From an uncultured Eubacteriales bacterium (GTDB lineage Bacteria; Bacillota; Clostridia; Peptostreptococcales; Anaerovoracaceae): a stretch of DNA of 64,000 nucleotides. Location of the stretch: contig OMXT01000019.1 in NCBI GenBank assembly GCA_900315125.1, positions 1,240 to 65,239 on the forward strand. Reading direction: 5' to 3'. The translations under genes and the position numbers were made by a program. Below, one piece after another: positions 28,386-63,432 of this stretch; within the stretch, counting starts at the first letter, position 1, and the number at the start of each line of letters is the position of its first letter. Under the pieces are notes generated by a model. The model was not told the DNA's origin and searched no databases. It was given only the letters and a program-made list of their open reading frames with translations.

Positions 28386-28415
28386 AGTTACTAACTCTAG
28401 AGTTACTAACTCTAG
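28386..28415. repeat. 15-bp perfect tandem duplication containing a 14-bp palindrome, upstream of the ATPase gene
   Basis: AGTTACTAACTCTAG occurs twice (28386-28400 and 28401-28415). The junction forms the perfect palindrome TAACTCTAGAGTTA (28392-28405). It lies 35 nt upstream of ATG 28451. Confidence 0.8.
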
Positions 28416-28450
28416 AGTATACAATTAAACGGCAAAGAAGGGACAATAAT

Positions 28451-29818
28451 ATGTTTTATGGGAGGAACAGGGAACTAAAAGAGCTGGAACGTAGGTGTTC
28501 CAGCGGCCGGAAAGAGTTCGGCGTGATATACGGCAGACGAAGGATCGGCAAATCTGTACTGGTCAGACATTTCTTTGAAGGGAAAAGGGGAGTCTTTTTT
28601 CAGGCGAAGCAGGATACGTCCTATGGTAATCTCCGTTCCTTCTCCTACGAACTGAACAAAGTCATGGGTCTTCCGCTTTCCTTCGTTTATTCAAGCTGGC
28701 AGGAAGCTTTTGATGCAGTGCTGCAGGCGGCAGGAGACGAAAGATTCCTGTTTGTCATCGATGAATATCCGTATATTGTTTCCCAGGATCCATCTTTCCC
28801 TTCGACCTTACAAGAATACGTGGACCGGGCACCGAATAATATGTTTATGCTGATCCTTGGGAGTGACGTTTCTTTCTTAAAGAATGAGCTGGAGGATAAA
28901 AAATCCCCCCTGTATAAGAGACGCACTTTTGAGATGCGGATCGGTAAAATGCCTTTTGATGAAGCGGTTTTATTTCTGACAGGAATGCCGACAGAGGAGA
29001 AGTGTGCATATCTTTCCCTGATGTCCTCCTACCCGTATTATCTTGCGTCGATTGACAGGGCTGCCTCTTTTGAAGAGAACATGGAGCGGCTCTTTTTCAA
29101 TGAATTCGGTACATTCTTCAATCTGCCGGATCAGGTTCTTTCAAATTCCACAAAAGTTCAGGACGTGTATAACGCCATTCTTCGGTCGGTTGCTCACCGA
29201 CATTATACGGTAAAGGATATCAGCATGGATATCCATGAAGAGAGCAGCAAGGTCTCCAAATATATCAAGACCCTTTTGAAAAGTGAGATTCTGGAAAAGC
29301 GGTCGACGTTTATGGGAAATAAAAACAGCCACTATTATGTGATTTCCGACCCCATGCTGCGATTCTGGTATCTCTTTATCTATGACAGACAGGAACTGAT
29401 ACGGGTCAATGGAGAAAAGGTGCTTTCCAGCTTGTCAGTTATGATAAAAGATTTTCTGGACAGAGGCTTTGAAGATACGGTGCTGCTTTTTCTGGATCAG
29501 GAGAACAGAAAAGGAAATCTTCCAGGTGTATTTCCGGAAATTCAGAATTTCAGGGCTGATAAGACCACACTGGGGCGATCTGTGGAAATCGACGGTCTTT
29601 CCCGCTCCGGAGATACGCTTCTGGTAGTGGAATGCAAATACCGAAAGAAATATTTTTCGAATGCCATGCTGGAGCACCTCAGGGAAAGCGCTTCGATCTT
29701 TTCGGAAAAGCTCAGCAGGCAGTATTATATCTTCTCAAAATCCGGGTTTTCTTCAGATATAGAACAGGCGAACAATGTTCACTTGTATACCGCAGAGGAC
29801 ATGTTCGGATTTGAGTAG
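28451..29818 (+). CDS. ATP-binding protein (archaeal-type ATPase with DUF234-like C-terminus)
   Basis: MFYGRNRELKELE...YGRRRIGKS (Walker A) and FVIDEYPY (Walker B). The length and C-terminal region are typical of the Arch_ATPase/DUF234 family, recognised from memory. Confidence 0.65.
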   Translation: MFYGRNRELKELERRCSSGRKEFGVIYGRRRIGKSVLVRHFFEGKRGVFFQAKQDTSYGNLRSFSYELNKVMGLPLSFVYSSWQEAFDAVLQAAGDERFLFVIDEYPYIVSQDPSFPSTLQEYVDRAPNNMFMLILGSDVSFLKNELEDKKSPLYKRRTFEMRIGKMPFDEAVLFLTGMPTEEKCAYLSLMSSYPYYLASIDRAASFEENMERLFFNEFGTFFNLPDQVLSNSTKVQDVYNAILRSVAHRHYTVKDISMDIHEESSKVSKYIKTLLKSEILEKRSTFMGNKNSHYYVISDPMLRFWYLFIYDRQELIRVNGEKVLSSLSVMIKDFLDRGFEDTVLLFLDQENRKGNLPGVFPEIQNFRADKTTLGRSVEIDGLSRSGDTLLVVECKYRKKYFSNAMLEHLRESASIFSEKLSRQYYIFSKSGFSSDIEQANNVHLYTAEDMFGFE

Positions 29819-49718: not shown

Positions 49719-49760
49719 GAACGTCGGTCCCGCAGTTCGCGGAGCCGGCGGTTCTTTTTT
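49719..49760 (+). terminator. rho-independent terminator after pnp
   Basis: Imperfect GC-rich stem (GAACGTCGGTCCCGC ... GCGGAGCCGGCGGTTC) followed by TTTTTT (49755-49760). Confidence 0.6.
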
Positions 49761-49806
49761 AGGGAACAAAGTCCTGACCGGCCTTTGTTTCGGAAAGGAG
49801 AGGGAC

Positions 49807-50898
49807 ATGGTCAAACAGCTTTACCCGAGACTGGAAATAAACCTCCAGTACCTGAGGGAAAACGTGGAGCAGATGGTGAAACGGGCCGAGGAAAGGGGCA
49901 TAGAGATCATCGGCGTGGTCAAAGGGACAACGGGCCTTGTGCCCTGCGTGCAGCAGTTCCTTGCCGGGGGATGCACCAAGCTGGCTTCGTCCAGGCTGGA
50001 GCAGATCGAGGACTGCCAGACCGCAGGGCTGGACGTGCCTTACCTGCTGCTCCGGGTGCCCATGCTGACGGAAGTGCCGGAGGTCATCCGCCTCTGTGAC
50101 TACAGCCTGAACAGCGAGATCAGGGTGCTCCGGGCGCTGAACGAGGAAGCGGGACGTCAGGGCAAGATCCATCGCCCCATCATCATGGCGGACCTGGGCG
50201 ACCTTCGGGAAGGATATTGGGATCACGATGAGATGGTGGACGTCTGCTGCCAGGTAGAAAATGAGATGGATAATCTTGAGCTTGCGGGCGTGGGCGTCAA
50301 TCTGGGATGCTACGGATCCATCCTTGCTACAGCGGACAAGCTCCAGGAGCTGGTGGATATTGCCCGCCGGGTGGAGGAGAGGATCGGGCGGAAGCTGGAG
50401 TACGTTTCCGGCGGCGCCACGTCGAGCCTCATGCGGATCCTGGACGGGGACATGCCGGAGGGGGTCAACATGCTCCGCTGCGGCGAAGGGATCCTGCTGT
50501 CTCAGGATCTGGACCGGTTCTACGGCTATGATGTGAGCTACATGCACGAGGACGTCTATACACTGAAGGCGGAGGTCATCGAGGTGAAGACCAAGCCCAC
50601 CCATCCCGTGGGGACAATCACCGTGGATGCCTTCGGCCATAAGCCGGTCTATGAGGACCGGGGCATGCGCCGCAGAGCACTGCTGGGCATTGGCAATGTG
50701 GACTGCGGCAATTACCAGGAGCTCACCCCAAGAGATGCGGGAATCGATATGGTAGGAGCCTCCAGCGACCATACGATCATTGATGTGGAGGACGCGGAAC
50801 GGTCCGTTGAGGTAGGAGATATTCTTTCCTTCGATGTGGACTACGCTTCCCTTTGTTACCTGACAAACTGCAGAAATGTGCATATAGTATATGTATAA
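49807..50898 (+). CDS. alanine/ornithine racemase-family PLP-dependent enzyme
   Basis: Ala-racemase N-terminal barrel pattern with GVVKGTTG (putative PLP Lys), 363 aa. Substrate cannot be assigned from sequence. Confidence 0.65.
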   Translation: MVKQLYPRLEINLQYLRENVEQMVKRAEERGIEIIGVVKGTTGLVPCVQQFLAGGCTKLASSRLEQIEDCQTAGLDVPYLLLRVPMLTEVPEVIRLCDYSLNSEIRVLRALNEEAGRQGKIHRPIIMADLGDLREGYWDHDEMVDVCCQVENEMDNLELAGVGVNLGCYGSILATADKLQELVDIARRVEERIGRKLEYVSGGATSSLMRILDGDMPEGVNMLRCGEGILLSQDLDRFYGYDVSYMHEDVYTLKAEVIEVKTKPTHPVGTITVDAFGHKPVYEDRGMRRRALLGIGNVDCGNYQELTPRDAGIDMVGASSDHTIIDVEDAERSVEVGDILSFDVDYASLCYLTNCRNVHIVYV

Positions 50899-51020
50899 AT
50901 TCATACCGATCCGGCCTGGCGATGGCCGGATCGGTGCATTAAGGAGGAATCAGTGGATATTCCGCCGCGGTTCTGGTACCGCTGCTGATCGGAGCATAGG
51001 TTTTCCGGAAAGGATAAGTA

Positions 51021-51902
51021 ATGAAGAAGTTTACAGGAAGTGATAACTATGTGGCGTCCAAGGAGCTGATGAACGCCGTAAATGTAGCCATGGCGCTGGA
51101 GAAGCCTTTGCTTATCAAAGGCGAGCCCGGCACGGGCAAGACCATGCTGGCGGAGTCTATCGCTGAGGCTCTCGACATGCCCCTGATCATCTGGGGAATC
51201 AAATCCACTACCAAGGCCCAGGAAGGCCTGTATGTCTACGATACGGTTCAGCGCCTCTATGACTCCCAGTTCGGCGAAGGCAACGTGGCAGATATCGCCC
51301 AGTATATCAAGCTGGGGAAACTGGGAGAGGCGTTTACGTCTGACCAGCAGGTCGTACTGCTTATCGATGAGATCGACAAGGCGGACCTGGAGTTCCCCAA
51401 CGACCTGCTCTGGGAGCTGGACCGCATGGAGTTTTATATCAATGAAACAAAGGAAACGGTCACCGCGAAGCACCGCCCGGTGACCATCATCACGTCCAAC
51501 GCGGAGAAGGAACTGCCGGACGCGTTCCTGCGCCGCTGTATTTTCCACTATATTGAGTTCCCGGATGAAGAGAAGATGCGGGAGATCATTCGCGTTCACT
51601 TCGGGGACATCAATAAACGGCTGGTGGACTCTGCCCTCGGCGCCTTCTATTCTATCCGTCAGATGAATGAGATCCAGAAGAAGCCCAGCACATCGGAGCT
51701 GCTGGACTGGATCCAGGCCCTGAAGATCAGCGGTATGGATACGTCCCGGATCGAATCGGAGATTCCTTATGTCGGCGTGCTTCTGAAGAAAAATCAGGAT
51801 ATCGACCGGCTCCGTGAGAGCCAGGGAAAGACGGTGACTGGCTCCGGCAGCTCCGGAAGAAACTCTCGCAGAAACGGCTATGGTTACGGAAACCGCTGGT
51901 GA
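51021..51902 (+). CDS. MoxR-like AAA+ ATPase
   Basis: Walker A GEPGTGKT and Walker B LLIDEIDKA; the size and layout match single-AAA MoxR/AAA_5 proteins. Confidence 0.8.
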   Translation: MKKFTGSDNYVASKELMNAVNVAMALEKPLLIKGEPGTGKTMLAESIAEALDMPLIIWGIKSTTKAQEGLYVYDTVQRLYDSQFGEGNVADIAQYIKLGKLGEAFTSDQQVVLLIDEIDKADLEFPNDLLWELDRMEFYINETKETVTAKHRPVTIITSNAEKELPDAFLRRCIFHYIEFPDEEKMREIIRVHFGDINKRLVDSALGAFYSIRQMNEIQKKPSTSELLDWIQALKISGMDTSRIESEIPYVGVLLKKNQDIDRLRESQGKTVTGSGSSGRNSRRNGYGYGNRW

Positions 51903-51908
51903 TGCCTT

Positions 51909-53102
51909 ATGTTTATTGATTTTTTCTATACGCTGAGAGCTTACGGACTGGACGTGTCCCTGGATGAATGGCTTTGTCTCATGGATGCGCTGGATCAGGG
52001 ACTGGCGGAGAATTCTTTGCTGGAGTTTTATTATCTCTGCCGCAACGTGCTGGTCAAGTCCGAGTCGGACTACGATACGCTGGACCAGGCATTCGGCGCT
52101 TATTTTCAGGGAATCGAGACCATCGATGATATCCCCGATGAGCTGAAACAGTGGCTGGCGGAAGATGGTCTGGAACGGGACCTGGAGGATATGCCCGACT
52201 GGGCGAAAGAATACGATATGGACACCCTGCGGAAGATGTTCGCTGAGCGTCTTGCGGAGCAGAACGAACGGCACAACGGCGGGAACTACTGGGTAGGGAC
52301 CGGCGGTACGTCGCCCTTCGGAAACGGAGGATGGAATCCGGCGGGGATACGGGTGGGCGGCGCCAGCCGCCATAGATCTGCGGTGCAGGTGGCAGCAGAC
52401 CGGAACTTCCGGGATTTCCGCGAAGACAACGAGCTGGACACCCGTCAGTTTCAGATGGCCTTCCGCAAGCTCCGTCAGTTTTCTTCCCTCATCGACGCGG
52501 CGCCCACGGAGCTGGATGTGGATGAGACCATCGACGCCACATGCGATAACGCAGGTCTCCTGACCCTGGTCTACGAAAAGCCTCGGCGCAACACGGTCAA
52601 GCTGCTGATGCTTATGGACTCCGACGGCTCCATGCAGGAGTACAGCGAGCTGTGCAGCCATCTGTTCCAGGCGGCTGACCAGTCCTCCCATTTCAAGGAC
52701 TTCCGGACTTATTATTTTCACAACTGCATATACGATCACGTCTACACGGACCCGTACTGCGTGAACGGCCGGTGGATCGATACCCAGTGGCTCTTTGGGA
52801 ACCTGGACTCCGAGTACAAAGTCATCCTTGTTGGGGATGCGGCGATGTCGCCCTATGAGCTCTACTCTCCCGGAGGCAACCTGGACTGGTACGCCTATAA
52901 CGAGGAACCGGGCATCGACTGGCTCTGGAAGTTCCGCCGCCGCTACCGCAATTCCGTCTGGCTGAACCCCATCCCCGCCCGCCGCTGGGAGCATGCCTGG
53001 GGCGCCCGCACCATCTCCATGGTCCGGGACGTCTTTCCCATGTTCGAACTGACCCTGGACGGCTTGGACGCCGCCATCCGCAAGCTGATGAGCGGCAGGT
53101 AA
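51909..53102 (+). CDS. VWA-domain protein, CoxE-like (MoxR partner)
   Basis: The N-terminus FFYTLRAYGLDVSLDEW is typical of CoxE-like proteins. The C-terminal VWA-like region starts LLMLMDSDGSM. It lies 6 nt downstream of the MoxR gene. Confidence 0.7.
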   Translation: MFIDFFYTLRAYGLDVSLDEWLCLMDALDQGLAENSLLEFYYLCRNVLVKSESDYDTLDQAFGAYFQGIETIDDIPDELKQWLAEDGLERDLEDMPDWAKEYDMDTLRKMFAERLAEQNERHNGGNYWVGTGGTSPFGNGGWNPAGIRVGGASRHRSAVQVAADRNFRDFREDNELDTRQFQMAFRKLRQFSSLIDAAPTELDVDETIDATCDNAGLLTLVYEKPRRNTVKLLMLMDSDGSMQEYSELCSHLFQAADQSSHFKDFRTYYFHNCIYDHVYTDPYCVNGRWIDTQWLFGNLDSEYKVILVGDAAMSPYELYSPGGNLDWYAYNEEPGIDWLWKFRRRYRNSVWLNPIPARRWEHAWGARTISMVRDVFPMFELTLDGLDAAIRKLMSGR

Positions 53103-53184
53103 TCCCGCGTCCGCAAGCTGATGAGCGGCCGGCAGTCCCGCGTCCCGGACCTGTCTGGTAACTTTGGGCTTGTCGGACTGCAGC

Positions 53185-54033
53185 TTAATCAATAGTGTGA
53201 ACAAGAGGAAGAACTACGCCGCGGATAATCTGATCTATCAGCGCTGTATTTATTCCGCCGTCCCTGCTGTCGCCGGTGACTATCAGATTATAACCCGGTG
53301 TGATGCCGTTCTGCTGATAGAGTTTCATCTTTTCTGAAGTCGATATGCGGTAGCCTTCTTTGTTAAGAAGTCCAAGGTGCTCCCAGTACAGTTTCGTTCC
53401 GTCACGAAGCAATATCGTAAAGTCAGGGTACCGCAGCACTTTTTCCCGATCGCCGTTTATCAGCACCAGGCGTTCATCGTAGCGGAATGGGATTTTGTAG
53501 CGCTTTAAAAGATTGTAAATTATCAGATCGCCCTTAGATCGGACCTTTGTTCCATCCACGGCGATACTGTCCATGTCCGGAAATGTCATAGGGTTCTTCT
53601 TGTATTCTGCCAGAGCCCATTCTTTGATTTCCTGCTTGCTGAAATCTGTCTGAAGTGCTGCAGGAAGCAGTCGATAAGAATCCGGGAGAGACTGCGTTAC
53701 GGATTCGGGGTCATATTTTTGGTATGCGCTCAGCATCTCAGTCAGGAGCTGCTGGTTTTCAACGAGACGTTTGCGTATCTCGCGGTAGACCTTTGCTTTC
53801 TTGAGCGACTGCACCTGAGTGTTTCCAGGTCCTCCAAGATATTTCCATTGTCGTTTGCGCTTGCCGTCAACCTGTTTCGAATTCACATGATAATATTTGA
53901 GCTTATTATTTTCTATGCGGCAAGCCAGGCATCCATCTTCGTTTTCACTGGAGAATGGAATCTTGTCGACTATTTGAATTAAAGCTTTAATGCGATCCAG
54001 CTCGAGGTGAGCTTCCGTAATGAATGAGTTCAT
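53185..54033 (-). CDS. hypothetical protein with PD-(D/E)xK / Vsr-like nuclease signature in the C-terminal half
   Basis: ATG 54033 follows AAAGGAA. The C-terminal pattern VRSKGDLIIYNLLKRYKIPFRYDE ... RYPDFTIL ... KLYWEHLG resembles restriction-endonuclease-fold cores. The gene is visibly AT-richer than its neighbours. No family name recognised. Confidence 0.5.
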   Translation of the reverse strand: MNSFITEAHLELDRIKALIQIVDKIPFSSENEDGCLACRIENNKLKYYHVNSKQVDGKRKRQWKYLGGPGNTQVQSLKKAKVYREIRKRLVENQQLLTEMLSAYQKYDPESVTQSLPDSYRLLPAALQTDFSKQEIKEWALAEYKKNPMTFPDMDSIAVDGTKVRSKGDLIIYNLLKRYKIPFRYDERLVLINGDREKVLRYPDFTILLRDGTKLYWEHLGLLNKEGYRISTSEKMKLYQQNGITPGYNLIVTGDSRDGGINTALIDQIIRGVVLPLVHTID

Positions 54034-54265
54034 AGGCGATTTCCTTTCACAGATAAGTAATGACGATAAGTAACAGCTTATGCTATGCATCTTTAGCGTT
54101 TTCACCACCTTAGCACACGAAAACTGTTATGAAAAGGTTTTTCTTGTATATTTTTAAAAGAATACAGAATTATAAGGTAAAATTATCATTACCAAATTAG
54201 ATAAATCGCAATTTCTTAGCGTTACCATACAAGTGTTTTTTACCAAACTATGGAGAAGCAGCCGC

Positions 54266-54760
54266 GGTAGACAACCCTGGCCGTAATTTGACGCGATGGT
54301 AGACCCAGGAGGGCGGTATAGGTCTACCATCGCGTCCGAGGCAGGCCGCGGTAGACAACCCTGGCCGTGATTTGATGTTAGGGTAGACCCAGTAGGGTCG
54401 TTTAGGTCTACCATCGGGTCTGAGACAGGCTGCGGTAGACAACCCTGGCCGTGATTTGATGTTAGGGTAGACCCAGGAGGGTCGTTAGGTCTACCATCGG
54501 GTCTGAGACAGGCTGCGGTAGACAACCCTGGCCGTGATTTGACGTTAGGGTAGACCCAGGAGGGTCGTTTAGGTCTACCATCGCGACCAAGACAGGCTGC
54601 GGTAGACAACCCTCGCTGCAATTTGACGTCAGGGTAGACCCAAGAGGGCAGTATAGGTTTACCATCGCGTCCGAGGCAGGCCGCGGTAGACAATCCTCGT
54701 TGCAATATAGAGCAAGGGTAGACTCAGAGCCCGATATGGTGGGAGAAAGTTCGGACCATC
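54266..54760 (+). repeat. tandem array, ~5.9 copies of an 84-bp unit (left array)
   Basis: The GGTAGACAACC register is at 54266, 54350, 54434, 54517, 54601 and 54685, so the period is 84 with one 83-bp copy. Each unit is GGTAGACAACC - 21 nt - GGTAGAC - 16 nt - GGTCTACC - 21 nt. The last copy is degenerate. Confidence 0.9.
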
Positions 54761-54761
54761 G

Positions 54762-54790
54762 TTGTTTTTTCTCGTATTCTGCGGTACAAT
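54762..54790 (+). promoter_or_regulatory. candidate promoter of the Nudix-jetABCD operon
   Basis: TTGTTT (54762-54767), 17-nt spacer, TACAAT (54785-54790). It lies just after the array and 50 nt upstream of ATG 54841. Confidence 0.4.
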
Positions 54791-54840
54791 GACGGGAGAA
54801 AGTTTGTGAAGGTTAGAACGCAAAAATCGCAGGAGAAACA

Positions 54841-55845
54841 ATGTGCGCGCAGAATGACAGAAAAACAGACGGGTCCAGCAGAGGCCTGAAAATAGAGAAG
54901 TCCATGGCCAAACAGGTCTTTGATGAGAAATTCCTTAAGGTGTATGATCTGCAGTATGAACCGGGCCGGCATTATTTTGACGCTACCCGGCGCAGCGCCG
55001 AAGACCTGGTGGCGCTGAAGGAGGACGGAGAATTCCGGAGCATGCTCCCGGATGCGGTCAGCTGTTTCGTGATCATTGATAACGGCAGCGAGAATAGTGA
55101 CGGCGCGAGCAACGGCGCAGCAAGAGCTGCAGGCGCACTGTCACCGGACATGATGTCGCCGGATGAGATCGCGTCAGCGTGCGCGGCGAACCGTGCGTCA
55201 GCGTCAGCGAGCGCGGCAAACCGTGCGTCAGCGTCAGTGAGTGCAGTAAATCGCGCGGCAGACGGTGTAGCAGACAGCGCGGCAAACCATGCGGCAGACG
55301 GCCCTTTGCTGCTGCTGGCTCGGGAGTACAGGTATCCGGCGGGCCGGTATCTTCTCAGCGTGCCCGCGGGGCTCCTCGATCCGGAGGATCAGCAGGAGAA
55401 GGATCCGCTGGTGAACGCGGCTGCCCGGGAGATCCACGAGGAAACGGGGATCGTCATCGGGGAGCATGACCGGATCTGGGCAGTGGATTCTTTCGTATTC
55501 AGTACGCCGGGCATGACCGATGAGAGCAATGCGCTGATGTGCGCTGTGATCAACGGGAACGCGAGAGCAGCGGAGGATCCAGGGGCTGCGGCGGAAGCGG
55601 GAGCAGGAACGCCGGGAACAAAGCCCGGGCAGATCTTTGTTTCCGGACACAGAGATACGGCAGAAGCCATCGGCCTGACCCAGTCCGGAGCCGTCGGATC
55701 AGAGAAGTTCGACGGCTTCGTGCTGCTGAACCGGGATGAGGCGAAGCAGGTCCTGGAAGAGGGCAGAGATTCCGAGGGCAACCCTTATCCGGTCTACACA
55801 TGGGCAGCCCTGATGTATTTCCTTTCGGACATGTGGAAACGGTAA
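54841..55845 (+). CDS. Nudix hydrolase (ADP-ribose-pyrophosphatase-like) with low-complexity insertions
   Basis: Nudix box GLLDPEDQQEKDPLVNAAAREIHEETGI. ATG 54841 follows AGGAGA (alternative ATG 54904). The stop lies 4 nt before the jetA ATG. An in-frame 30-bp tandem repeat at 55171-55296 encodes AANRASASAS-type segments. Confidence 0.75.
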   Translation: MCAQNDRKTDGSSRGLKIEKSMAKQVFDEKFLKVYDLQYEPGRHYFDATRRSAEDLVALKEDGEFRSMLPDAVSCFVIIDNGSENSDGASNGAARAAGALSPDMMSPDEIASACAANRASASASAANRASASVSAVNRAADGVADSAANHAADGPLLLLAREYRYPAGRYLLSVPAGLLDPEDQQEKDPLVNAAAREIHEETGIVIGEHDRIWAVDSFVFSTPGMTDESNALMCAVINGNARAAEDPGAAAEAGAGTPGTKPGQIFVSGHRDTAEAIGLTQSGAVGSEKFDGFVLLNRDEAKQVLEEGRDSEGNPYPVYTWAALMYFLSDMWKR

Positions 55846-55849
55846 TCAT

Positions 55850-57337
55850 ATGACGAACCTTTTTGACATGATCCCGGAAGGGTTCTTTAATCTGCTGAGC
55901 AGCGGGAGCAACAGCAGGGTATATGCAGACTGCCTGGAGCTGATCTATGACGAGTTCAGCCATGAAATATCTTACAGAGCCAGAAGGGAACGGATCAGGG
56001 ACATTCTGGCTTCTTATTTTCTTGAGCACAGGCTGGAGCCGGCAGACCAACTGGAACCGGCAGACGCATCGGGCGACGGTACTTCCGCGTCTGCCGCTCC
56101 CGCGGGTCTCAGCCCTCAGGATACCGCCAATGCCGTGCTGCGCCGCTTTACGGATCCCAGGATCGGTTGGTTAGAGGAGGACAATGACGACGAGACCTAC
56201 GAACGCCACATCGTCATGACCGAGTCCGGCATTCGGCTGGCGGAGCTGATGATCACGCTGAAAAAGCCAGAAAAAGAAGAATACACATCCTATATATTCG
56301 CTATCAGAAACTCCCTTTTGAGCCGGGAGCAGTGGGAGGCTGATCCCTATGTCAATGTGCTGAGGGATGTTTACCGGAACGCCCGCCTCCTGTCCAAATC
56401 CCTTAAACGTCTGTCTACATTTATCAAGAACATCATACAGGACATGGTCCAGGAACAGAGCCTGGAGAGCCTGACGGAGAACCTGCTGTCCTATTGCGAG
56501 GGCGATTTCATCCGGGAATACGCCCGTCTTTCCAAACAGCAGAACATCCGCATATACCGGCGTATGATCCAGGAAAAGCTGGATCATTTCCGGGATGACG
56601 AGGACACGCTGGAGCAGCTGACCAGTGCCTGCGCGGCAGAAGAAGAGCTGAGCGAAGAAGGAGCGCGGGAGCATGTGCTGGACATGATCCAGGGAACGCG
56701 TCAGTTCCTGAGTGATGATTATGACCAGATCATGAGGGATATAAAGCACAAAATCAATCTCTACCTGACCATCGCTATCGGGCGGGCAAGATTTCTGCGC
56801 AGCCGCTCCGCTGACGCCCGAGGCAGCGTGGAACAGGCGGTCCGTCTGCTGGTGAGCGAAACAGAGGCAACAGGACTGATGGACGAACTGCCCGAAGAAC
56901 AGCGAGCCATGTTTTTGTTCGATCAGAATGACTTTCTCGATGAAGGATCTTTGCGATACCCGGGACGCCAGCTTGCCATACGGAAAAGTGTATCACAGGT
57001 CTACCAGGAAATGACGGAGGAGGACATCGCTGAGGCGCGCAGAGCTCAGGAGAAAGCAGCAGCCAATCCCTATTCCCTTAAGCGGGTGGGAGAATATATT
57101 GAAGAGCAAATGGGCGACGTACGCCAGATCGAAGCGGAGCAGCTGCCGATGAACAGCCGGCGGGAACTGCTCATGGCTCTGGCTGCCGCTGTATACGGGC
57201 AGGAGCTGGGCTATGAGGTCATACCGGAGGAAGGCTATGTAGAGTCGCAGCAGCTGATGATCCGCAATTTCGCGATTCGAAGGAGAACGATGCAGAGAAG
57301 TGATATAGTGGAGGGGACGCAAACGCATGAATTTTGA
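55850..57337 (+). CDS. jetA: Wadjet JetA (kleisin-like, DUF3375-type)
   Basis: 495 aa, first of four overlapping genes whose sizes and order (about 495/245/1088/518 aa) match JetABCD. Assigned mainly by operon architecture. Confidence 0.7.
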   Translation: MTNLFDMIPEGFFNLLSSGSNSRVYADCLELIYDEFSHEISYRARRERIRDILASYFLEHRLEPADQLEPADASGDGTSASAAPAGLSPQDTANAVLRRFTDPRIGWLEEDNDDETYERHIVMTESGIRLAELMITLKKPEKEEYTSYIFAIRNSLLSREQWEADPYVNVLRDVYRNARLLSKSLKRLSTFIKNIIQDMVQEQSLESLTENLLSYCEGDFIREYARLSKQQNIRIYRRMIQEKLDHFRDDEDTLEQLTSACAAEEELSEEGAREHVLDMIQGTRQFLSDDYDQIMRDIKHKINLYLTIAIGRARFLRSRSADARGSVEQAVRLLVSETEATGLMDELPEEQRAMFLFDQNDFLDEGSLRYPGRQLAIRKSVSQVYQEMTEEDIAEARRAQEKAAANPYSLKRVGEYIEEQMGDVRQIEAEQLPMNSRRELLMALAAAVYGQELGYEVIPEEGYVESQQLMIRNFAIRRRTMQRSDIVEGTQTHEF

Positions 57338-58064
57338 AGAATACTGGGACAGCTGCACGGCGTCGGAGCGGGATCAGTTCCAGCGGACGGTCCGCCGGCT
57401 CCTGAAAACCACGTTTATTGTCCGTGACAAAGACGAGATCAGCAAGTCCGCTTATTTTTTCGTGTCGAAGCGGCAGGAAATGTTCACGGAATACCTGAAA
57501 TACATAGGTTTCGACGTAGCATTGGACAGGGACAACGGTGTAGTCATGCTCCGCAATGCAGCTGACTCTGCCGAATTTGGCAGGATCCAGTCCAACCGGG
57601 TGGCGCTGAAAAAGATCGACAGCATCATTCTCTGCAGCCTGTGGACCATCTATGCAGGGAAGATGAGGGACGGACTGGTAAAGAACGTCATGGTTTCTGT
57701 GGCTGAGCTGCGCTTTGAGCTGGAGAAGTTCGGCGTAAGAGAACAGGTGAACCGGAAGGTTCTGGAGTCATCTCTTAAACTGTTTTCCAAGTTCAATCTG
57801 CTGAAGATACACGGTGCTGTAGGAGAACCGGACTGCATGATACAGCTGTACCCCTCCATGCAGTTTGCCCTGGATACGGAAGCATTCCGAAAGTTCGTGA
57901 AGTCTGCGGCAGAACGCATGAACGAGAACCGGGAAGAGATCAGCTGGGTAATGTCTTCGGAGGAGTCATTGGAGGACGATGGGGCTGACCCGGATACGGA
58001 TAGTGAAGAGTCTGATCCTGAGGATGAGTTCTCAGAAAACGAATCGGAGGAGGAACGCCCATGA
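57327..58064 (+). CDS. jetB: Wadjet JetB (KITE-like, DUF4194-type)
   Basis: 245 aa with an acidic C-terminal tail; overlaps jetA by 11 nt. The segment LLKTTFIVRDKDE...YLKYIGFDVALDRDNGVVMLRN fits the DUF4194 pattern from memory. Confidence 0.7.
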   Translation: MNFEEYWDSCTASERDQFQRTVRRLLKTTFIVRDKDEISKSAYFFVSKRQEMFTEYLKYIGFDVALDRDNGVVMLRNAADSAEFGRIQSNRVALKKIDSIILCSLWTIYAGKMRDGLVKNVMVSVAELRFELEKFGVREQVNRKVLESSLKLFSKFNLLKIHGAVGEPDCMIQLYPSMQFALDTEAFRKFVKSAAERMNENREEISWVMSSEESLEDDGADPDTDSEESDPEDEFSENESEEERP

Positions 58065-61000
58065 AGGTCGTAAGCCGCAAGACAGCTACGAGAATGCAGA
58101 TCATAAACTGGTCTCGCTTTCAGAACGTAACATTCCGCATGGAAGGCTCCGTGCTGCTGACGGGAGCGAACGGCAGCGGGAAATCGACGATCCTGGACGC
58201 TGTCACATACCTGCTGACTGGAAATACTCAATTCAACAAGGCGGCAAAAGACAGAGACCGCACCGTGCTTTCCTACGTCCGTGGCGACACCAACAGCAAC
58301 GGTGCCCAGCGTTTTCTGCGGCAGGGCAGCGTCATATCCTATCTGGCTATGGAGTTCCGCTCGCCAACAGAGAAGGAAGTCTTCGTCTGCGGCGTATGCA
58401 TCGAGTCCGCCACAGAAGCGGATTACCGACCGAATTGGTTCGTGCTTCATGACACATCGCTTGAGGATGTCAATTTCGCCCGGGTGGAAGAGGGAAGGCT
58501 GATCGTCACGCCCAGGAATGAGCTGACCGCAGGCGGGCGCCCTGTCAATGCCCGTGCGTTCATGGCCAGAGATACGGGCGTCCGGCAGGTCATGCGTGCC
58601 ATGGGACTGCGCTACGATCCCCGGAAATACCGTTCCAAGCTCATCCGCATGCTGGCATTCAATCCGGAAAATAATATTGACCGGTTCATCCAGGACTGTG
58701 TGCTGGATCCGGGCAAAGTCGATTCTCTGAAGGAAGTCCGGGAACAGCGGGAGAAGTTCGAGGAGCTGAAGCGCCTTTACGACAATCTGCGGGGTTGCAG
58801 GGATAAACTGGAGATCTGCGAGCAGCGCGCCCGGGATTACGAAGGGCGGCGGAGGCGCCTGCGCATCGATGAGATGATGCTGGATCATCAGGAGCTCTGC
58901 GCCCTGAAGCAGGAGACAGAAGAGAGCCAGCGCCGGGAGGCCTTTCTGGAACAAAGGCTTGTTCGCCTGGGTGACCAGATCCTGTCCGCGGAAAGCGATC
59001 TGAAAGATGCGGAGCAGCGCCTTATCGTCGCCAGGACCAATGACGTTTATTCCGGCATGAAGAATACGATCAGCGAACTGGAACGCCAGAAGGATCGAAT
59101 GGAAGGGGAGCAGCAGCGGTACCGGGAGCAGATCCGGGAGCTTACTGCGCTCAGAAAGAAACTGGAGTCATTCCTGCAGATGAAGGCGGAAGGTCCAGAA
59201 GAGAATTCCATGAGACTCAGTCCTCAGGACTCCCAGGCGATCACAGAGATGGACCAGGCGGGAAACATGACTGAAGAGCAGAAGGAAGGCTCTTTCCGCC
59301 GCATTGCGGAGGAGGGGAGCAGACTCACACGTTATCTGGGACGGCAGGTCTGGTCCCTGGAAAATCAGTGTGAAGAATATCGGCAGAGACGGGAAGAGCT
59401 CAGCAAACAGATCCACTCTCTGGAAGCGAATATTCAGGTGTTTCCAAAGGAGGCGGAGTCCGTCCGGCAGACACTGGCGTCCGAACTGGAGAAAAGAGGC
59501 ATTCATACTGACGTGCGCTTCGTCGCTGAGCTCGTTCAGGAGGTAAAAGACCCGGGATGGAGAAAGGCGATAGAGACGTTCCTGGGACGGCGCCGGTTCA
59601 ATATCATCATCGACGGAAAATACTGCGGGGACGCGCTGGAGATCGTGAGGGAGAAGTCCCTAAACGGTACAGGCGTCATCATTACGGATCAGCTCCCCGA
59701 CCGGGAGGAAGAACCGGGATCCGCGGCGGAGCAGCTGACGGTTCCCAATATCTTTGCCCGCCGCTACCTGAATTATCTGCTGAACGGGATCCATCTCTGT
59801 GATACGCTGGACGAGCTCCATGAGCATCCGGCAGGAGCGCTTATGAAGGACGGCATGCTGGCAAAGAGCTATGCGGCGTCCCGGATGAATATGAGAAAGA
59901 CCGTTGTCTACTTCGGCAAAGACGCGATCCGCCTGCAGCTCCGGTCTGCCCGGGAGGAAATGAAGCAGCTGGAACAGGAGATGGAAACGGCAGAGAAGGC
60001 TTTGTCCCAGAACCGCAGCAGAGCAGATGCGCTGCGCCGCATCGATTTTTCCGCGGACCGCTATCACATGGATGCTCCGGAGCGCAGCAGGGACACCGCT
60101 GCCCGTATAGACCGGACAGAAAATGAAATCCGCGAGATCCAGGATAACCCGGACTTTCTGGCCGTAATACAGGAAGTGGAGAATGCGGAAGAGGCAAGGA
60201 AACGTGCGGAGCAGGAGCGGAACCGGATCCAGAAGGACCAGATGACATGCCAGCTGAAAGCGGAGGAAGAACGGGCGAAGCAGCAGGAGCTGTCGGAGCA
60301 GATCTGCGCTGCACAGGAAGCCTGCCGGCAGTCCCAGAGCCAGTATCCGGAGCTGGTGGATGTCATGAAAAAGGAATACGAAGAACGGCGCAGGCGCCTT
60401 GGACGGCCAAGAGTCCTGCAGCAGCAGACGGTACAGAAACTGAGGGGCGAACTCAGTGAAAAATACGAGAATGCGCTGATCTCTGCCCAGCTGGACTACT
60501 GCCGGCTGGCGGGTGCGGATATGAATCGGTTCGGTCCGTCCTATATCAGCTTTTACCGAGATGAGTACCGGGATGTAGCGAATGTCAGGATCGAGGAAGC
60601 TCAGAGCCGCCTGGACAGTCAGGGCGACCGGCTGGAGAGCGCGTTTATGACGGACTTCGTGGCGGAGCTGAATGAGAAGATCCGCGCTGCCCGTGGGGAG
60701 CTCAGCGCCATAAACAGGGAACTTCGGGAACTGCCCTTTGGGCAGGATACCTATCGGTTCGTCGTCAGGGAAAAGGCGGACCGGGCGCCCTTCTTCCGGA
60801 TCTGCCGCGGGCTGGAGAAGTATATGGACAATGCGGAAGCCTACATGAATTCTGACCGCAGCGACGAAGCCATGGAGACGGATATCCGTGAGTTTATGAA
60901 CATGATCCTCGATGAAGAGGACGAGTCAGAATATACGGATTACCGAAAATACTTTACATATGATATGGAGATCACCAGCCGCCAGGGCGGGGAAGAAGTC

Positions 61001-61327
61001 CAGGCGGAGCTCTCGCGGAAGCAGGGCTCGGCCAGCGGCGGCGAAAAACAAACGCCCTATTTTATCATTCTTGCGGCGAGTCTGATGCAGTGCTATCCCA
61101 GAAACGTCTGCTGCGCCCGTCTGGCCTTTATCGACGAAGCCTTCTCCGCCATGTCGCCGGAACGGATCGAGCAGATGGTTCGTTACTTTAACGACAACGG
61201 ATTCCAGGTCATCTACTCCGCGCCTCCGGAGAAGATCGGGAGCATCGGGGAGCACGTGGGTTCCATCGTGAGCCTCGTCATGACCGGAAGGTACACCAAT
61301 GTGGTAGAGGGGCTGATTGAAGTATGA
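58061..61327 (+). CDS. jetC: Wadjet JetC (SMC/MukB-like ATPase)
   Basis: Walker A GANGSGKST at the N-terminus, about 700 aa of coiled coil, then C-terminal ASGGEKQ signature and Walker B LAFIDEAF. ATGA overlap with jetB. Confidence 0.85.
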   Translation: MKVVSRKTATRMQIINWSRFQNVTFRMEGSVLLTGANGSGKSTILDAVTYLLTGNTQFNKAAKDRDRTVLSYVRGDTNSNGAQRFLRQGSVISYLAMEFRSPTEKEVFVCGVCIESATEADYRPNWFVLHDTSLEDVNFARVEEGRLIVTPRNELTAGGRPVNARAFMARDTGVRQVMRAMGLRYDPRKYRSKLIRMLAFNPENNIDRFIQDCVLDPGKVDSLKEVREQREKFEELKRLYDNLRGCRDKLEICEQRARDYEGRRRRLRIDEMMLDHQELCALKQETEESQRREAFLEQRLVRLGDQILSAESDLKDAEQRLIVARTNDVYSGMKNTISELERQKDRMEGEQQRYREQIRELTALRKKLESFLQMKAEGPEENSMRLSPQDSQAITEMDQAGNMTEEQKEGSFRRIAEEGSRLTRYLGRQVWSLENQCEEYRQRREELSKQIHSLEANIQVFPKEAESVRQTLASELEKRGIHTDVRFVAELVQEVKDPGWRKAIETFLGRRRFNIIIDGKYCGDALEIVREKSLNGTGVIITDQLPDREEEPGSAAEQLTVPNIFARRYLNYLLNGIHLCDTLDELHEHPAGALMKDGMLAKSYAASRMNMRKTVVYFGKDAIRLQLRSAREEMKQLEQEMETAEKALSQNRSRADALRRIDFSADRYHMDAPERSRDTAARIDRTENEIREIQDNPDFLAVIQEVENAEEARKRAEQERNRIQKDQMTCQLKAEEERAKQQELSEQICAAQEACRQSQSQYPELVDVMKKEYEERRRRLGRPRVLQQQTVQKLRGELSEKYENALISAQLDYCRLAGADMNRFGPSYISFYRDEYRDVANVRIEEAQSRLDSQGDRLESAFMTDFVAELNEKIRAARGELSAINRELRELPFGQDTYRFVVREKADRAPFFRICRGLEKYMDNAEAYMNSDRSDEAMETDIREFMNMILDEEDESEYTDYRKYFTYDMEITSRQGGEEVQAELSRKQGSASGGEKQTPYFIILAASLMQCYPRNVCCARLAFIDEAFSAMSPERIEQMVRYFNDNGFQVIYSAPPEKIGSIGEHVGSIVSLVMTGRYTNVVEGLIEV

Positions 61328-62880
61328 GTAATAAATTGCAGCCAGGCACAGCATCCTCCCCGGACGAGAACATGCTGACCGCCCGCGAACAGGACGCAGC
61401 GATGCCCCTCAGCAAAAGACAGAAAACAATCTTATCCCTCCTGCTGAATAAATACGAGTCAAGCCGCACGTACCGGGGCGAAAACCAGGTCCGCCAGACA
61501 TTCGCCATTACGCCGGAGCAGGTGATGCCGGATTACCATTCCGATTTTGCCGATGTGGCCGACGTCGAAATATTCGAGCGGGAGCTGCGGGATCTGGAGC
61601 GGACCGGGCTGATCACAACTGAAGAAAAAAGCGGAGAAACAGCCCGTATTGTCGCTGCCGCCGGAAAATTTTCTGACTATTACAGTCTGCTCGGTCGCCG
61701 GGAACTGAGGGATCAGGAGAACCAGGAACTCGCTTACTACAAAGGCCTGCTCGGCCGTCATCCGGTGATGGACGGGTTCTGTGAGGAGCAGATCCGGCGC
61801 CTCTCTGATGGGAAGAAAGCCAGATATCCGCTGGATGAAGCGAGGGATATCCTGAAGGCCATGGAATATATTCTGACTAATGAGGAGGACATCCTGGAAA
61901 GGGAGCTTTCCATCGAGCTCTATAGAGATTCCAAGCTGTTTGCCGCCAGGTACCGGAGCAGAGTCGTCCGGCTGCTGGAACGCTACGGCGACGGGGCGGT
62001 CAGGGCTTTGTCAGAGGAGCAGATGTCCCCTCGGGAGCGGGAGGAACAGATCCTGGAAGCCCACGGCATCTATGCTAATCCCACGTATATTTATATGAAA
62101 GGGTCCGGGCGGCTGTATTTCTGCAGCGATCCGCATGTTCTCGGTGATTCGCATATCCATAGCGATTCGTCCGCGCCTGCAGGAGACGACGGGCTGTCAA
62201 AAAGTGGGGGAGCGGCTGCGGACACTGTAATGACCGTGCAGCCGGATTTCGCTGTGGCGTTGTCCTCCGAAGCGCTCCGCCGACTCGTTAGAGTGGAGAT
62301 CGATTCGGATACGGTGATCACTGTGGAAAACCTGACATCCTTCAGCCGGATGAAGCCGGAGGTGGTTCTGCCTGAGACAGCAGTTCCCAGCGAAGCATCT
62401 GGCGATGTTTCGACCCAGCCCGCTTTCCTTATTTATCTCAGCGGGTACCATAATCTGGACAAGCAGAAGTTTCTTCAGCTGATCCGCAGGCGGGATCCTG
62501 CCTGCGCCGGTGCCGCCGAGAAGGATCCCGCCGGGACTGCTCCTGCCCGCGCAGTCCCGAATTGTTCGATTCCGAGCCTTTCAGATGACAGAGCTCCGGA
62601 TCTCACCGATATTCGCTGGCTGCACTTCGGCGATCTGGATCCGGATGGATTCGACATCCTTGAGAATCTGAAGAGCCGGACAGGTCTGCCATTTCAGCCT
62701 TATCGGATGGACGCGTCTCTGCTCCAGAAGTACGAGAACTATGGACGCCCTTTGAATGCCAACGACCGTACCAAGGCCGAAAACCTGATCGAGCAGGGAA
62801 TGTATGTGCTCCAGCTGTCCTACATGCTTGAGCACGACTGCAAGCTGGAGCAGGAAATCATAAGCTGGAAAGAATTGTGA
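61324..62880 (+). CDS. jetD: Wadjet JetD (Toprim-domain nuclease subunit)
   Basis: C-terminal Toprim-like HFGDLDPDGFDILENLK. ATGA overlap with jetC. At 518 aa it is longer than typical JetD because of low-complexity inserts. Confidence 0.75.
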   Translation: MSNKLQPGTASSPDENMLTAREQDAAMPLSKRQKTILSLLLNKYESSRTYRGENQVRQTFAITPEQVMPDYHSDFADVADVEIFERELRDLERTGLITTEEKSGETARIVAAAGKFSDYYSLLGRRELRDQENQELAYYKGLLGRHPVMDGFCEEQIRRLSDGKKARYPLDEARDILKAMEYILTNEEDILERELSIELYRDSKLFAARYRSRVVRLLERYGDGAVRALSEEQMSPREREEQILEAHGIYANPTYIYMKGSGRLYFCSDPHVLGDSHIHSDSSAPAGDDGLSKSGGAAADTVMTVQPDFAVALSSEALRRLVRVEIDSDTVITVENLTSFSRMKPEVVLPETAVPSEASGDVSTQPAFLIYLSGYHNLDKQKFLQLIRRRDPACAGAAEKDPAGTAPARAVPNCSIPSLSDDRAPDLTDIRWLHFGDLDPDGFDILENLKSRTGLPFQPYRMDASLLQKYENYGRPLNANDRTKAENLIEQGMYVLQLSYMLEHDCKLEQEIISWKEL

Positions 62881-62973
62881 GTTGATTCCCTGCTCGAAAG
62901 AGCTTTGGTCAGACTCCGCGAATCGTCTTGCCGTCCTCGTTTTGCTGTCTGTGCATTGCTGTTCTCGACTTGC

Positions 62974-63385
62974 CGTCTACCCGATGGCGTATAGTAGCCG
63001 AGGGTAGATAACCATCGGTCTGTAAACTGCCCATGATAGAGTAAAACCGGGCGTATAGGTCTACCCGCCGGCGTTTAGCGGTCGCGGGTAGACAACCATC
63101 GGTCAGTAAATGGCTCATGGTAGACTAAATCAGGGCCTACAGGTCTACCCGTTGGCGTATAGCGGCCGAGGGTAGACAACCATCGGTCAGTAAATGGCTC
63201 ATGGTAGACTAAATCAGGGCTTACAGGTCTACCCGCCGGCGTATAGCAGCCGAGGGTAGATAACCATCGGCCAGTAAACTGCCCATGGTAGAGTAAAACA
63301 GGGCGTATAGGTCTACCCGATGGCGTATAGCAGCCGCGGGTAGATAACCGGCAGCCGGCAAACGGTATGTGGTAGATGGCCCAGA
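62974..63385 (+). repeat. tandem array, ~4.9 copies of an 84-bp unit (right array)
   Basis: The GGTAGA(C/T)AACC register is at 63003, 63087, 63171, 63255 and 63339, an exact 84-bp period. The motif layout matches the left array (GGTAGAYAACC - 21 - GGTAGAC/G - 16 - GGTCTACC - 21). Copies 2 and 3 are nearly identical. Confidence 0.9.
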
Positions 63386-63432
63386 AGAATCGGTTATCAA
63401 ACGAGAGCAAGTCAATCACTAAGTAACCGCTA

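Follow-up and report, generated by a model that had tools for sequence, protein, structure and literature searches.

A heptamer-bearing tandem array beside a Wadjet operon most likely belongs to the neighbouring gene of an uncharacterised nuclease family

When a tandem repeat array fills the space between two divergently transcribed genes, which of the two does it serve? The question is raised by a 64,000-nucleotide stretch of DNA, hereafter the window, from an uncultured Eubacteriales bacterium (Anaerovoracaceae; GenBank assembly GCA_900315125.1, contig OMXT01000019.1, positions 1,240 to 65,239), in which an array of 84-bp units carrying the heptamer GGTAGAC separates a gene for a 282-amino acid (aa) nuclease-like protein from an operon composed of a Nudix gene and the Wadjet genes jetABCD. 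Most likely the array goes with the nuclease gene to its left, not with the Wadjet operon to its right, because relatives of the nuclease gene in other Clostridia almost always have a lineage-specific array of their own just upstream. The features on which the argument turns are the following, in coordinates of the window.

54261 to 54760, no strand assigned: left tandem array, about 5.5 to 6 head-to-tail units of 84 bp, one unit being 83 bp
53185 to 54033, minus strand: gene of the 282-aa nuclease-family protein, transcribed away from the array (gene call in L055)
54034 to 54260, minus strand: AT-rich spacer from the array to the nuclease-family gene, 31% GC
62975 to 63394, no strand assigned: right tandem array, five units of 84 bp, between the jetD stop and the mutY stop (63433)

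Tandem Repeats Finder (TRF) places the left array at 54261-54697, with a period of 84, 5.2 copies, 89% matches and a score of 643, and the alignment of the units indicates that a degenerate final unit extends it to about 54760. Gap-free repeat extension gives unit starts spaced by 84, 84, 83 and 84 bp, so that one unit is 83 bp long. Each unit has GGTAGAC on the plus strand at offsets 0 and +32 and a minus-strand copy at +56, contained in GGTCTACC, which begins at +55. The plus-strand copies start at 54266, 54298, 54350, 54382, 54434, 54466, 54517, 54549, 54601, 54633, 54685 and 54717, and the minus-strand copies lie at 54322, 54406, 54489 and 54573, together with a GGTTTACC variant at 54656. 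The window holds 31 copies of the heptamer against 3.9 +/- 2.2 expected, a number reached by none of 100 shuffles, and 16 of them fall in the left array. Identity among its central units is 93-98%, and those at the edges are degenerate.

The first-pass annotation of this DNA, made from the letters alone, had described almost six head-to-tail copies of 84 bp with one of 83 bp, direct heptamers at 0 and +32 with an inverted copy at +55, and an array filling most of the divergent region. The TRF result, the unit spacings and the mapped motif positions agree with this description, and the array occupies about 500 of the 807 bp that separate the start codon of the nuclease-like gene (54033) from the Nudix start (54841). 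The same annotation had denied that the array is a clustered regularly interspaced short palindromic repeat (CRISPR) locus, and rightly so: it is the whole 84-bp unit that repeats, at 80-98% identity, and the left array has no unique spacers. The number of units is not fixed, as independent metagenome assemblies of the window's species contain 6, 5 or 2 of them; the two-unit form could reflect an assembly collapse. Near the Nudix end of the array an 11-bp direct repeat, GGGAGAAAGTT, occurs at 54741-54751 and 54794-54804, on either side of the candidate Nudix-jet promoter, and its first copy (54741-54751) breaks what would be the last inverted heptamer of the array.

A right-hand counterpart, implied when the first array was called the left one, does exist. 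TRF reports it at 62975-63349, with a period of 84 and 4.5 copies, and a degenerate fifth unit reaches 63394. It is in register with the left array, matching it in the orientation and the spacing of the heptamers (-, +28, +60, +84), and the two arrays bracket Nudix-jetABCD (54841-62880) in direct orientation, about 8 kb apart; the right array is 9 kb from the nuclease-family gene. It has a sharp edge on the jet side and a degenerate one on the mutY side, and its length, unlike that of the left array, is identical in all assemblies of the species. Directly before it, at 62923-62977, there are about four copies of a 14-bp repeat, TCGNNTTGCYGTC, the last of which runs into the first GTCTACC.

The comparison of the two arrays separates what is kept from what merely repeats. 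Within an array, the identity of the units is about 80% on the left and 77% on the right; left and right units are only about 49% identical to each other, against a background of about 24%. The columns that left and right units have in common amount to roughly three blocks only, GGTCTACC, GGTAGAYAAYC and GGTAGA. Judged from these alignments, selection appears to have kept three short motifs at a fixed spacing, and not the sequence of the unit or an extended hairpin.

The unit itself forms arrays at two sites only in the 64 kb of the window, which contains dozens of intergenic regions, and scans for the exact three-heptamer pattern across 185,579 species-representative GTDB genomes, the JGI metagenomes and IMG/VR returned single matches and no multi-unit array. 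A blastn search of the array against plasmids and phages gave no match. The pattern matches are 8-bp GGTAGACN microsatellite blocks on Chloroflexota and sediment contigs (L003, L004, L007, L008, L013, L024 and others), with 5-12 copies often followed by an inverted GTCTACC block; the octamer is the one seen here and the architecture is different. These blocks were set aside as unrelated to the array because no family gene lies near them.

The picture changes when the gene rather than the unit is followed. The neighbourhoods of the nuclease-family gene were compared in the window and in ten further lineages, eleven in all. In each of the ten others the gene is a solitary one among housekeeping genes unrelated to it, with no jet genes nearby. 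Directly upstream of it lies an unusually long intergenic region (360-1,220 bp), which in 9 of the 11 lineages, the window included, holds an array; the motif of the array is short (6-8 bp), specific to the lineage and present in both orientations. The periods range from about 53 to 107 bp, many of the motifs contain a GTA(G) core, and strains differ in copy number. The arrays of the other lineages are given below under the labels of their loci, with those of the proteins in brackets.

L064 (P0123, 42% identity to the window protein): TTTGTAA; GTTTGTAA / TTACAAAC, 6.7 units of 91 bp, 134 bp before the ATG
L071 and L072 (P0137): GTATCG; GAGTATCG / CGATAC, units of 72 bp, five versus four in two strains
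L075 and L076 (P0125): sub-repeats of 90-107 bp; a 215-bp block single in one assembly and in 1.8 copies in the other
L077 (P0134): GTAGCGG; AGTAGCGG with inverted CCGCTA, five units of 62-73 bp; 4 copies versus 0.48 expected
L078 (P0135): TACCCAG / CTGGGTA in strictly alternating orientation; 5 copies versus 1.0 expected
L081 (P0172, 32% identity; 1-Mb contig of GCA_900198705.1): TAGACAA, nine times forward every 52-53 bp, with reverse copies in between; 14 copies versus 0.71 expected
L084 (Butyrivibrio sp. XPD2002): GTTACG, 3.4 units of 64 bp, almost only direct copies
L088 (P0146, 37% identity): TGGTAGC forward and GCTACCA twice, two units of about 92 bp; 6 copies versus 0.74 expected

The motif counts tested in these lineages each exceeded all 200 shuffles. 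Within 10 kb on either side, every copy of the motif falls in the upstream region of the family gene in L064 (14 of 14 copies, all of those in the 20.8-kb locus being inside the array), L078 (5 of 5) and L077 (4 of 4). When the loci were scanned without bias for the canonical 7-mer densest in any 500 bp, the maximum of the whole locus lay directly upstream of the family gene in six of ten loci (the window, L064, L081, L084, L071 and L078); these densest stretches hold 5-16 copies of the 7-mer versus a background median of 3.

The motifs differ between lineages and still have something in common. Those of eight lineages include GTA, and four include GTAG (GGTAGAC, TGGTAGC, RTAGACAA and AGTAGCGG). 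The first heptamer of the window's unit, when extended, reads GGTAGACAAC and contains the TAGACAA of L081, even though the two proteins are only 32% identical. This common core, a post hoc observation on the motif sequences, points to a conserved contact with lineage-specific flanks. The order of the sites toward the gene is forward, reverse, reverse in the window, with spacings of 24, 32 and 28, and the same in L088, with 27, 32 and 33; that of L071 is only loosely like the window's. In L077 and L078 the short motifs are kept and the whole units are not. With regard to the pitch of DNA, 84 bp corresponds to 8.0 helical turns, 53 bp to 5.05, 63-64 bp to 6.0-6.1 and 72-73 bp to 6.9, so that, across nine lineages, the periods are often near a whole number of turns, which is suggestive only.

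The copy number differs between strains in three lineages. The gene is more stable in its position than in its array. Its neighbour is pta in L067 and L088 (37% identity between the two proteins); in L075 and the window it adjoins pnp or is close to it. Because the chromosomal position is kept between some lineages while the motif changes completely, the gene seems to be inherited largely vertically, with an array that turns over fast. Repeats also occur downstream of the gene in L081 (3988-4073, 29 bp x 3), L084 (4533-4691, 33 bp x 4.8) and L067 (10980-11200, ATGATGA), for which reason the gene may be flanked by repeats on both sides. A separate observation concerns L064 and L075, two related lineages that share a noncoding element of some 45 nt, AAAGCCCTGAAAT(A)TGA(A)CATTAAAGTRYTAAATTTCAACATTTC, in the stretch from array to gene (9889-9935 in L064; 2917-2962 in L075, and the same in L076). 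It could be a promoter/operator or a leader.

What kind of protein does this gene encode? Its GC content is 46%, versus 55% for the window, and its product matches no Pfam, NCBIfam or PHROG family. The C-terminal 120 residues match the C-terminus of the PADLOC candidate PDC-S68 (E 2e-26) and the model HEAT_CxxC_PD-DEXK. An alignment of 16 members has R165, S166, P203-D204-F205 and E218-H219 without exception and E169 almost throughout; the order S-x-x-E / Y-P-D-F / W-E-H is that of TnsA and of Vsr/DUF559-type nucleases. The AlphaFold (AF2) model has a predicted local distance difference test score of 86.7 for the full protein and of 93.5 for the N-terminal 112 residues alone. Compared with viral models (Foldseek on BFVD), the C-terminal domain matches T7-type endonuclease I, the TnsA N-terminal domain, DUF559 and Holliday-junction resolvases with a probability of about 1.0. 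On the strength of its sequence and model, this domain can be assigned to the PD-(D/E)xK nucleases of the Vsr/DUF559/TnsA/endonuclease I type, with predicted activity. The N-terminal domain is modelled as a helix, a three-stranded beta-meander with a basic hairpin (DGKRKR) and a long helix; in the model it looks like a small nucleic-acid binder, assignable to no family. In the PDB, a sequence search with the protein found no match and Foldseek with the full protein found none that was significant.

The size of the family became apparent only with profiles. A search with the single sequence returned 22 matches, and the family emerged with a profile search, in which 3,729 clusters at 90% identity were among the candidates scored. 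The full profile scan gave, in clusters at 50% identity, 8,782 at E <= 1e-3, 6,149 at E <= 1e-10 and 3,740 at E <= 1e-30. Among the 150 best matches listed, nearly all are 255-290 aa long and align over their full length, and the source names shown are all "hypothetical protein", from Clostridia and other Bacillota. This is a large, uniform and unannotated family of Bacillota with a conserved two-domain architecture and at least 3,740 clusters at 50% identity. In 72,556 plasmids, 50,697 phage records and IMG/VR no full-length member was found; what recurs there is the nuclease domain alone, forming the C-terminus of AAA or RecD-like helicases, and single proteins used as queries gave no viral relatives. 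Neither the family nor arrays of this type turned up in the literature searched.

The reading favoured here, with somewhat less than even confidence, is that the array is an iteron-like set of binding sites for the adjacent 282-aa protein, placed upstream of the gene's own promoter and, in this genome, of the jet promoter as well. To the observed anatomy, motif statistics, family-wide linkage of gene and array, motif-only conservation and copy-number variation it adds a binder, the 282-aa protein, which is proposed because of the co-occurrence and the motif-only conservation. We further infer that duplex DNA rather than RNA is the acting form, and that binding has a regulatory effect. The first-pass annotation had suggested phased sites for a GGTAGAC-binding protein, and this is the best supported of its interpretations, the heptamer blocks and their spacing being nearly all that the two arrays share. 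Another of its interpretations, that the array is tied to Nudix-jetABCD, is probably wrong, because arrays of the same type lie upstream of nuclease homologues with no jet genes nearby.

Under the favoured reading, the GGTAGAC heptamers with their GTAG core would be recognition sites in duplex DNA, presumably read by the beta-sheet N-terminal domain. Many protomers would load side by side on the phased array, with three sites per 84 bp, or eight helical turns, and would form a nucleoprotein block just upstream of the gene's promoter. Such a block could autoregulate the gene, park (sequester) a potentially dangerous nuclease, or both, and in the window's genome it would also abut the weak promoter of Nudix-jetABCD. 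The right array, with the same heptamers, would be bound by the same protein beyond the jet operon, and because of this second cognate array past jetD the protein could in principle bridge the two. Unequal crossing-over between units would alter the number of sites.

Several points weigh against this reading. The 11 neighbourhoods compared are a small part of the thousands of family loci, and two of them are weaker: in L067 dispersed ATGATGA motifs lie on both sides of the gene, and L086 has 19-21-bp repeats only. The periods of 91-92 bp are not a whole number of helical turns. A simple operator model does not predict the right array, whose presence beyond jetD is explained by none of the hypotheses examined, and 15-18 sites far exceed the need of ordinary autoregulation. 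An active nuclease that recognises sites beside its own gene must also somehow avoid cutting them. As to the putative binding domain, Foldseek found nothing significant for it in the PDB; the best matches, PUR-alpha (E 0.19) and PC4/Sub1, are weak and are binders of single-stranded nucleic acid. An assignment of this domain as an AP2 or integrase arm-type domain was considered and rejected, the arm-type match being only at rank 48 with a probability of 0.10.

Arrays of cognate sites beside the gene of their binder are well known from plasmids, where they serve as iterons or centromeres: P1 incC/incA with RepA, R1 parC with ParR, F sopC with SopB (43-bp units) and the TAGTARRR iterons of pAD1. 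Like these, the present arrays consist of tandem, phased short motifs that are lineage-specific and lie beside, and sometimes on both sides of, the gene of the putative binder, an adjacency seen in nine of the eleven lineages. The plasmid arrays overlap or abut the promoter of the binder's gene, and some have internal inverted repeats (sopC). In contrast, the arrays described here are on the core chromosome and not on a separate replicon; their neighbour has no Rep, ParR, ParB or ParG-type domain and instead a nuclease domain with conserved catalytic residues; and their units are long (53-107 bp) with two or three sites each. The best reading of the module is still that of a cognate binding-site array beside the gene of its binder, a known kind of arrangement, here on an uncharacterised and very large nuclease family.

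A broader conception goes beyond the favoured binding-site reading and is, as a whole, unlikely, albeit worth stating. It would see an "array-docked nuclease", a chromosomal module found throughout the family in Bacillota, in which a small two-domain nuclease is paired with its own fast-evolving GTAG-core array. The array might be a parking or sensing platform, with release, for instance, on DNA damage or infection, or else a programmed substrate. In the window, where two arrays bracket the Wadjet operon, bridging could loop, insulate or co-regulate it. In a variant of the same conception, the RNA of the array would be a new type III-like antitoxin of a PD-(D/E)xK toxin.

That variant leads to the rival explanations, among which an RNA role of the array is rather unlikely. 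It supposes that the array is transcribed and that its hairpin-bearing 84-nt repeats act as RNA, either as an antitoxin processed into units, as in type III toxin-antitoxin (TA) systems, or as another structured RNA bound by protein. About 5-7 tandem repeats directly upstream of the gene of a toxin-like nuclease do recall ToxIN, which in the work of Blower et al. reportedly has 5.5 repeats, and ToxIN, CptIN and TenpIN are likewise single modules with few lineage-specific tandem repeats immediately ahead of the gene of a small nuclease. An inverted repeat is present in each unit, both strands fold better than shuffles (z -5.5 and -6.4), four C-to-T changes in stems preserve G.U pairing on the plus strand, and the weak structural matches of the N-terminal domain bind single-stranded nucleic acid.

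The first-pass annotation had noted that the inverted heptamer can pair with either neighbour to give alternative hairpins. The pairing is possible, and unit 1 even has a perfect 16-bp stem by inverted-repeat search, but a role for the hairpins finds no support: in the other units of the left array the outer 8 bp of this stem are lost and an 8-bp core remains, the aligned units contain no compensatory changes, and the folding energy has no consistent strand preference, the antisense strand being more stable in seven of nine arrays. Nor are hairpins universal, because L084 has almost only direct copies; in L077 and L078, moreover, it is the short motifs and not the whole units that are conserved.

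The transcription signals also disagree with an RNA role. In the window, the only promoter-like site that a consensus scan found on the gene's strand, TTGCGA and GATAAT separated by 18 nt (54211->54182), lies between the array and the gene; the scan found no such site distal to the array on that strand and no terminator-like site in 53900-54900, and hence none between array and gene. Sites read by eye occupy a similar place in L071, with TATAAT 28 nt before the ATG (the scan reported only another site, inside the array), and in L081, with TTGACG, 17 nt and TATAAT about 50 bp before the ATG. The genes upstream of the arrays in L064 and L071 end in terminator-like sites of their own ahead of the array. 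Because of these promoter-like sites between array and gene and these terminator-like sites before the array, the array looks like upstream DNA and not like leader RNA. Furthermore, the units are 84 nt long versus 34-45 nt in type III systems, Rfam has no match, and the protein is unrelated to ToxN, AbiQ, CptN and TenpN (PADLOC, Pfam), its C-terminal domain having the PD-(D/E)xK fold. The idea that the arrays are tandem promoters was considered and rejected; promoter-like hexamers occur in the units of L064 and L071, with none in those of the window.

A second alternative, also rather doubtful, denies the array any function. If the nuclease nicked or cut DNA close to its own gene, or if replication slipped, local tandem duplications would arise repeatedly as a by-product, and the "motifs" would simply be palindromic parts of the unit. 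The variation in copy number between strains in three lineages is what such a process would leave, as is the complete turnover of the array between lineages at an unchanged position of the gene (for example beside pta in both L067 and L088) and the presence of small tandem repeats downstream of the gene in L081 and L084. Segmental amplification driven by a homing endonuclease, as reported in PMC13096335, offers a precedent. The by-product explanation, however, leaves three things unaccounted for: the survival of heptamers plus spacing between the left and right arrays, the common GTA(G) core with the forward-reverse-reverse order of the window and L088, and the degenerate arrays of L077 and L078 that keep the motif and not the unit.

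It is improbable that the unit is a generic dispersed repeat of the repetitive extragenic palindromic (REP) or bacterial interspersed mosaic element (BIME) kind, structural, gyrase-binding or transcript-stabilising, and tied to neither neighbour, a case that the first-pass annotation had itself raised. GTAG is a tetranucleotide conserved in REPs, and each unit contains an imperfect palindrome with GTAG. The resemblance goes further: there are two distinct arrays with 8 kb between them, and one lies where two genes converge, a typical place for REPs; the repeats are clustered in alternating orientation; and a single-copy enzyme gene goes with palindromic repeats that co-vary by lineage, as in the pairing of REPs with their tyrosine transposases (RAYTs). 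Yet the repeats appear local, in one or two clusters with a strict tandem period, and not dispersed in hundreds of copies: there are two sites only in 64 kb, no multi-unit match in the 185,579 representatives, the JGI metagenomes or IMG/VR, scans that did not extend to the complete genome of the organism itself, and in L064, L078 and L077 the motif is confined upstream of the gene within +/-10 kb. There is no HUH/Y1 RAYT in the window, and the link to the nuclease family speaks against a "generic" repeat.

Very improbable, despite its position, is a role of the arrays as parts of the Wadjet locus, whether as boundary, loading or self-marking sites for JetABCD, as operators of a jet regulator, or as recombination sites of a mobile jet cassette. 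The features concerned are the following.

54762 to 54790, plus strand: candidate Nudix-jetABCD promoter, TTGTTT (54762-54767), 17-nt spacer, TACAAT (54785-54790), starting 2 nt past the left array
54841 to 62880, plus strand: Nudix-jetABCD operon (Pfam, PADLOC, gene calls)
54841 to 55845, plus strand: Nudix
55850 to 57337, plus strand: jetA
57327 to 58064, plus strand: jetB
58061 to 61327, plus strand: jetC
61324 to 62880, plus strand: jetD

In favour of such a role, the two arrays enclose Nudix-jetABCD exactly and point the same way, the left one stops 2 nt short of the candidate jet promoter, and the sharp jet-proximal edge of the right one would fit an insertion or a truncation. This is the candidate promoter of the first-pass annotation; as a promoter it is plausible but weak, being read by eye from the sequence, with 8 of 12 consensus matches, and the scan missed it because this falls below its threshold. 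A component of Wadjet would be expected to recur with jet operons, but among the ten other lineages inspected the arrays go with the nuclease-family gene and without jet genes, near which none of the ten lies. The closest Nudix homologue is a stand-alone gene, the window has no recombinase or transposase, and neither a target-site duplication nor a shared junction sequence was found. Homologous excision between the arrays is unlikely because, at 49% identity, they are too diverged, and the jet literature found makes no mention of such arrays. The data speak neither for nor against a jet operon inserted into what was once a single array; there is no junction homology, no target duplication and no gradient in the identity of left and right units. 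Nudix-jetABCD is context and not a conserved partner of this type of array.

A mobile origin would also bring to mind the subterminal repeats of transposases, such as the TnsB sites at the ends of Tn7, whose TnsA is a nuclease, or those of Ac/Ds and En/Spm. The short motifs in both orientations and the TnsA-like nuclease fold are shared with these. Here, however, the arrays are direct and not inverted, neither a TnsB-type or DDE partner nor a target duplication accompanies them, and the gene lies outside the bracketed segment; its conserved position in some lineages (next to pta, near pnp) suggests vertical inheritance.

The possibility that the array encodes a protein of 28-aa repeats (84 bp being 28 codons) on the minus strand, in the open reading frame (ORF) 54154-54705, can be given almost no weight: the period is divisible by three and one minus-strand frame has a single stop per array, but the 83-bp unit shifts the frame, the copy number varies, no gene is called there in any assembly, the plus strand is full of stops, the open frames follow from the single TAG per unit, and periods elsewhere (91, 53 and 64 bp) are not multiples of three.

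If the linkage of gene and array that the favoured reading builds on holds across the family, a large unannotated family of Bacillota would gain its first functional handle, in the form of a DNA, or possibly RNA, element that can be read from the genome. Natural pairs of motif and protein would let the recognition code of a new nucleic-acid-binding domain be derived, and would offer orthogonal, programmable site arrays and binders for gut and rumen Clostridia that are poorly tractable. Work on the regulation of Wadjet would be redirected, the array by the jet promoter probably answering to the neighbouring nuclease-family protein. Arrays of variable copy number break short-read assemblies; because of this, and because many family members are on contigs of 1-3 kb, the module has probably been under-seen.

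The surroundings of the two arrays are those of a core Firmicute chromosome, and homologues of its proteins bear names that point to Lachnospiraceae (Butyrivibrio). The window runs through pyrH-frr-uppS-cdsA-dxr-rseP-ispG-polC, then nusA-infB-truB-ribF, then rpsO-pnp, and after pnp follow an Orr-like racemase, a MoxR-type ATPase and a VWA protein (all on the plus strand), the 282-aa gene (minus strand), the spacer of 31% GC, the left array, Nudix-jetABCD, the right array and mutY (minus strand). Minus-strand ORFs at 49759-53204, considered as genes, were overruled by the gene calls of the assemblies, which put the Orr-like racemase, MoxR ATPase and VWA genes there on the plus strand. Pfam scans of the main ORFs of the window found housekeeping genes, Nudix-jetABCD and the nuclease-family gene only, and no cas gene, recombinase or transposase. 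The whole window has no match to Rfam 15 at the gathering threshold, and no tRNAs.

The Nudix gene has features of its own. It ends 4 bp before jetA and is therefore probably co-transcribed with it; it contains 30-bp in-frame tandem repeats at 55171-55296 (four copies, 70-100% identical), and its product is 334 aa long versus about 220 aa in all homologues, which align over about 54% only.

Other repeats and genes of the region may be mentioned briefly. A 33-bp tandem repeat of two to three copies (53060-53145) lies at the 3' end of the VWA gene, just ahead of the 3' end of the convergent nuclease-family gene. At 28386-28418 there is a tandem repeat of 15 bp, perfect in its AGTTACTAACTCTAG x 2.2, a short way ahead of an ATPase_2/DUF234 gene (28451-29818); it lies within 2 kb of DNA after polC for which no ORF of at least 150 aa is listed. 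The MoxR-like AAA ATPase and the VWA_CoxE protein (51021-53102) adjoin the nuclease-family gene; the former has weak IetA/IteA-type matches over its N-terminal 45 residues or so and a MadB-family match over residues 101-266, and the pair could be a further defence-like pair or ordinary housekeeping genes. Past the right end of the window, on the same contig after mutY (L055 19057-20562), there are a DDE transposase with IS66/IS240-type matches and a GIY-YIG protein, and because this transposase is encoded just after mutY, a mobile element lies close to the jet island.

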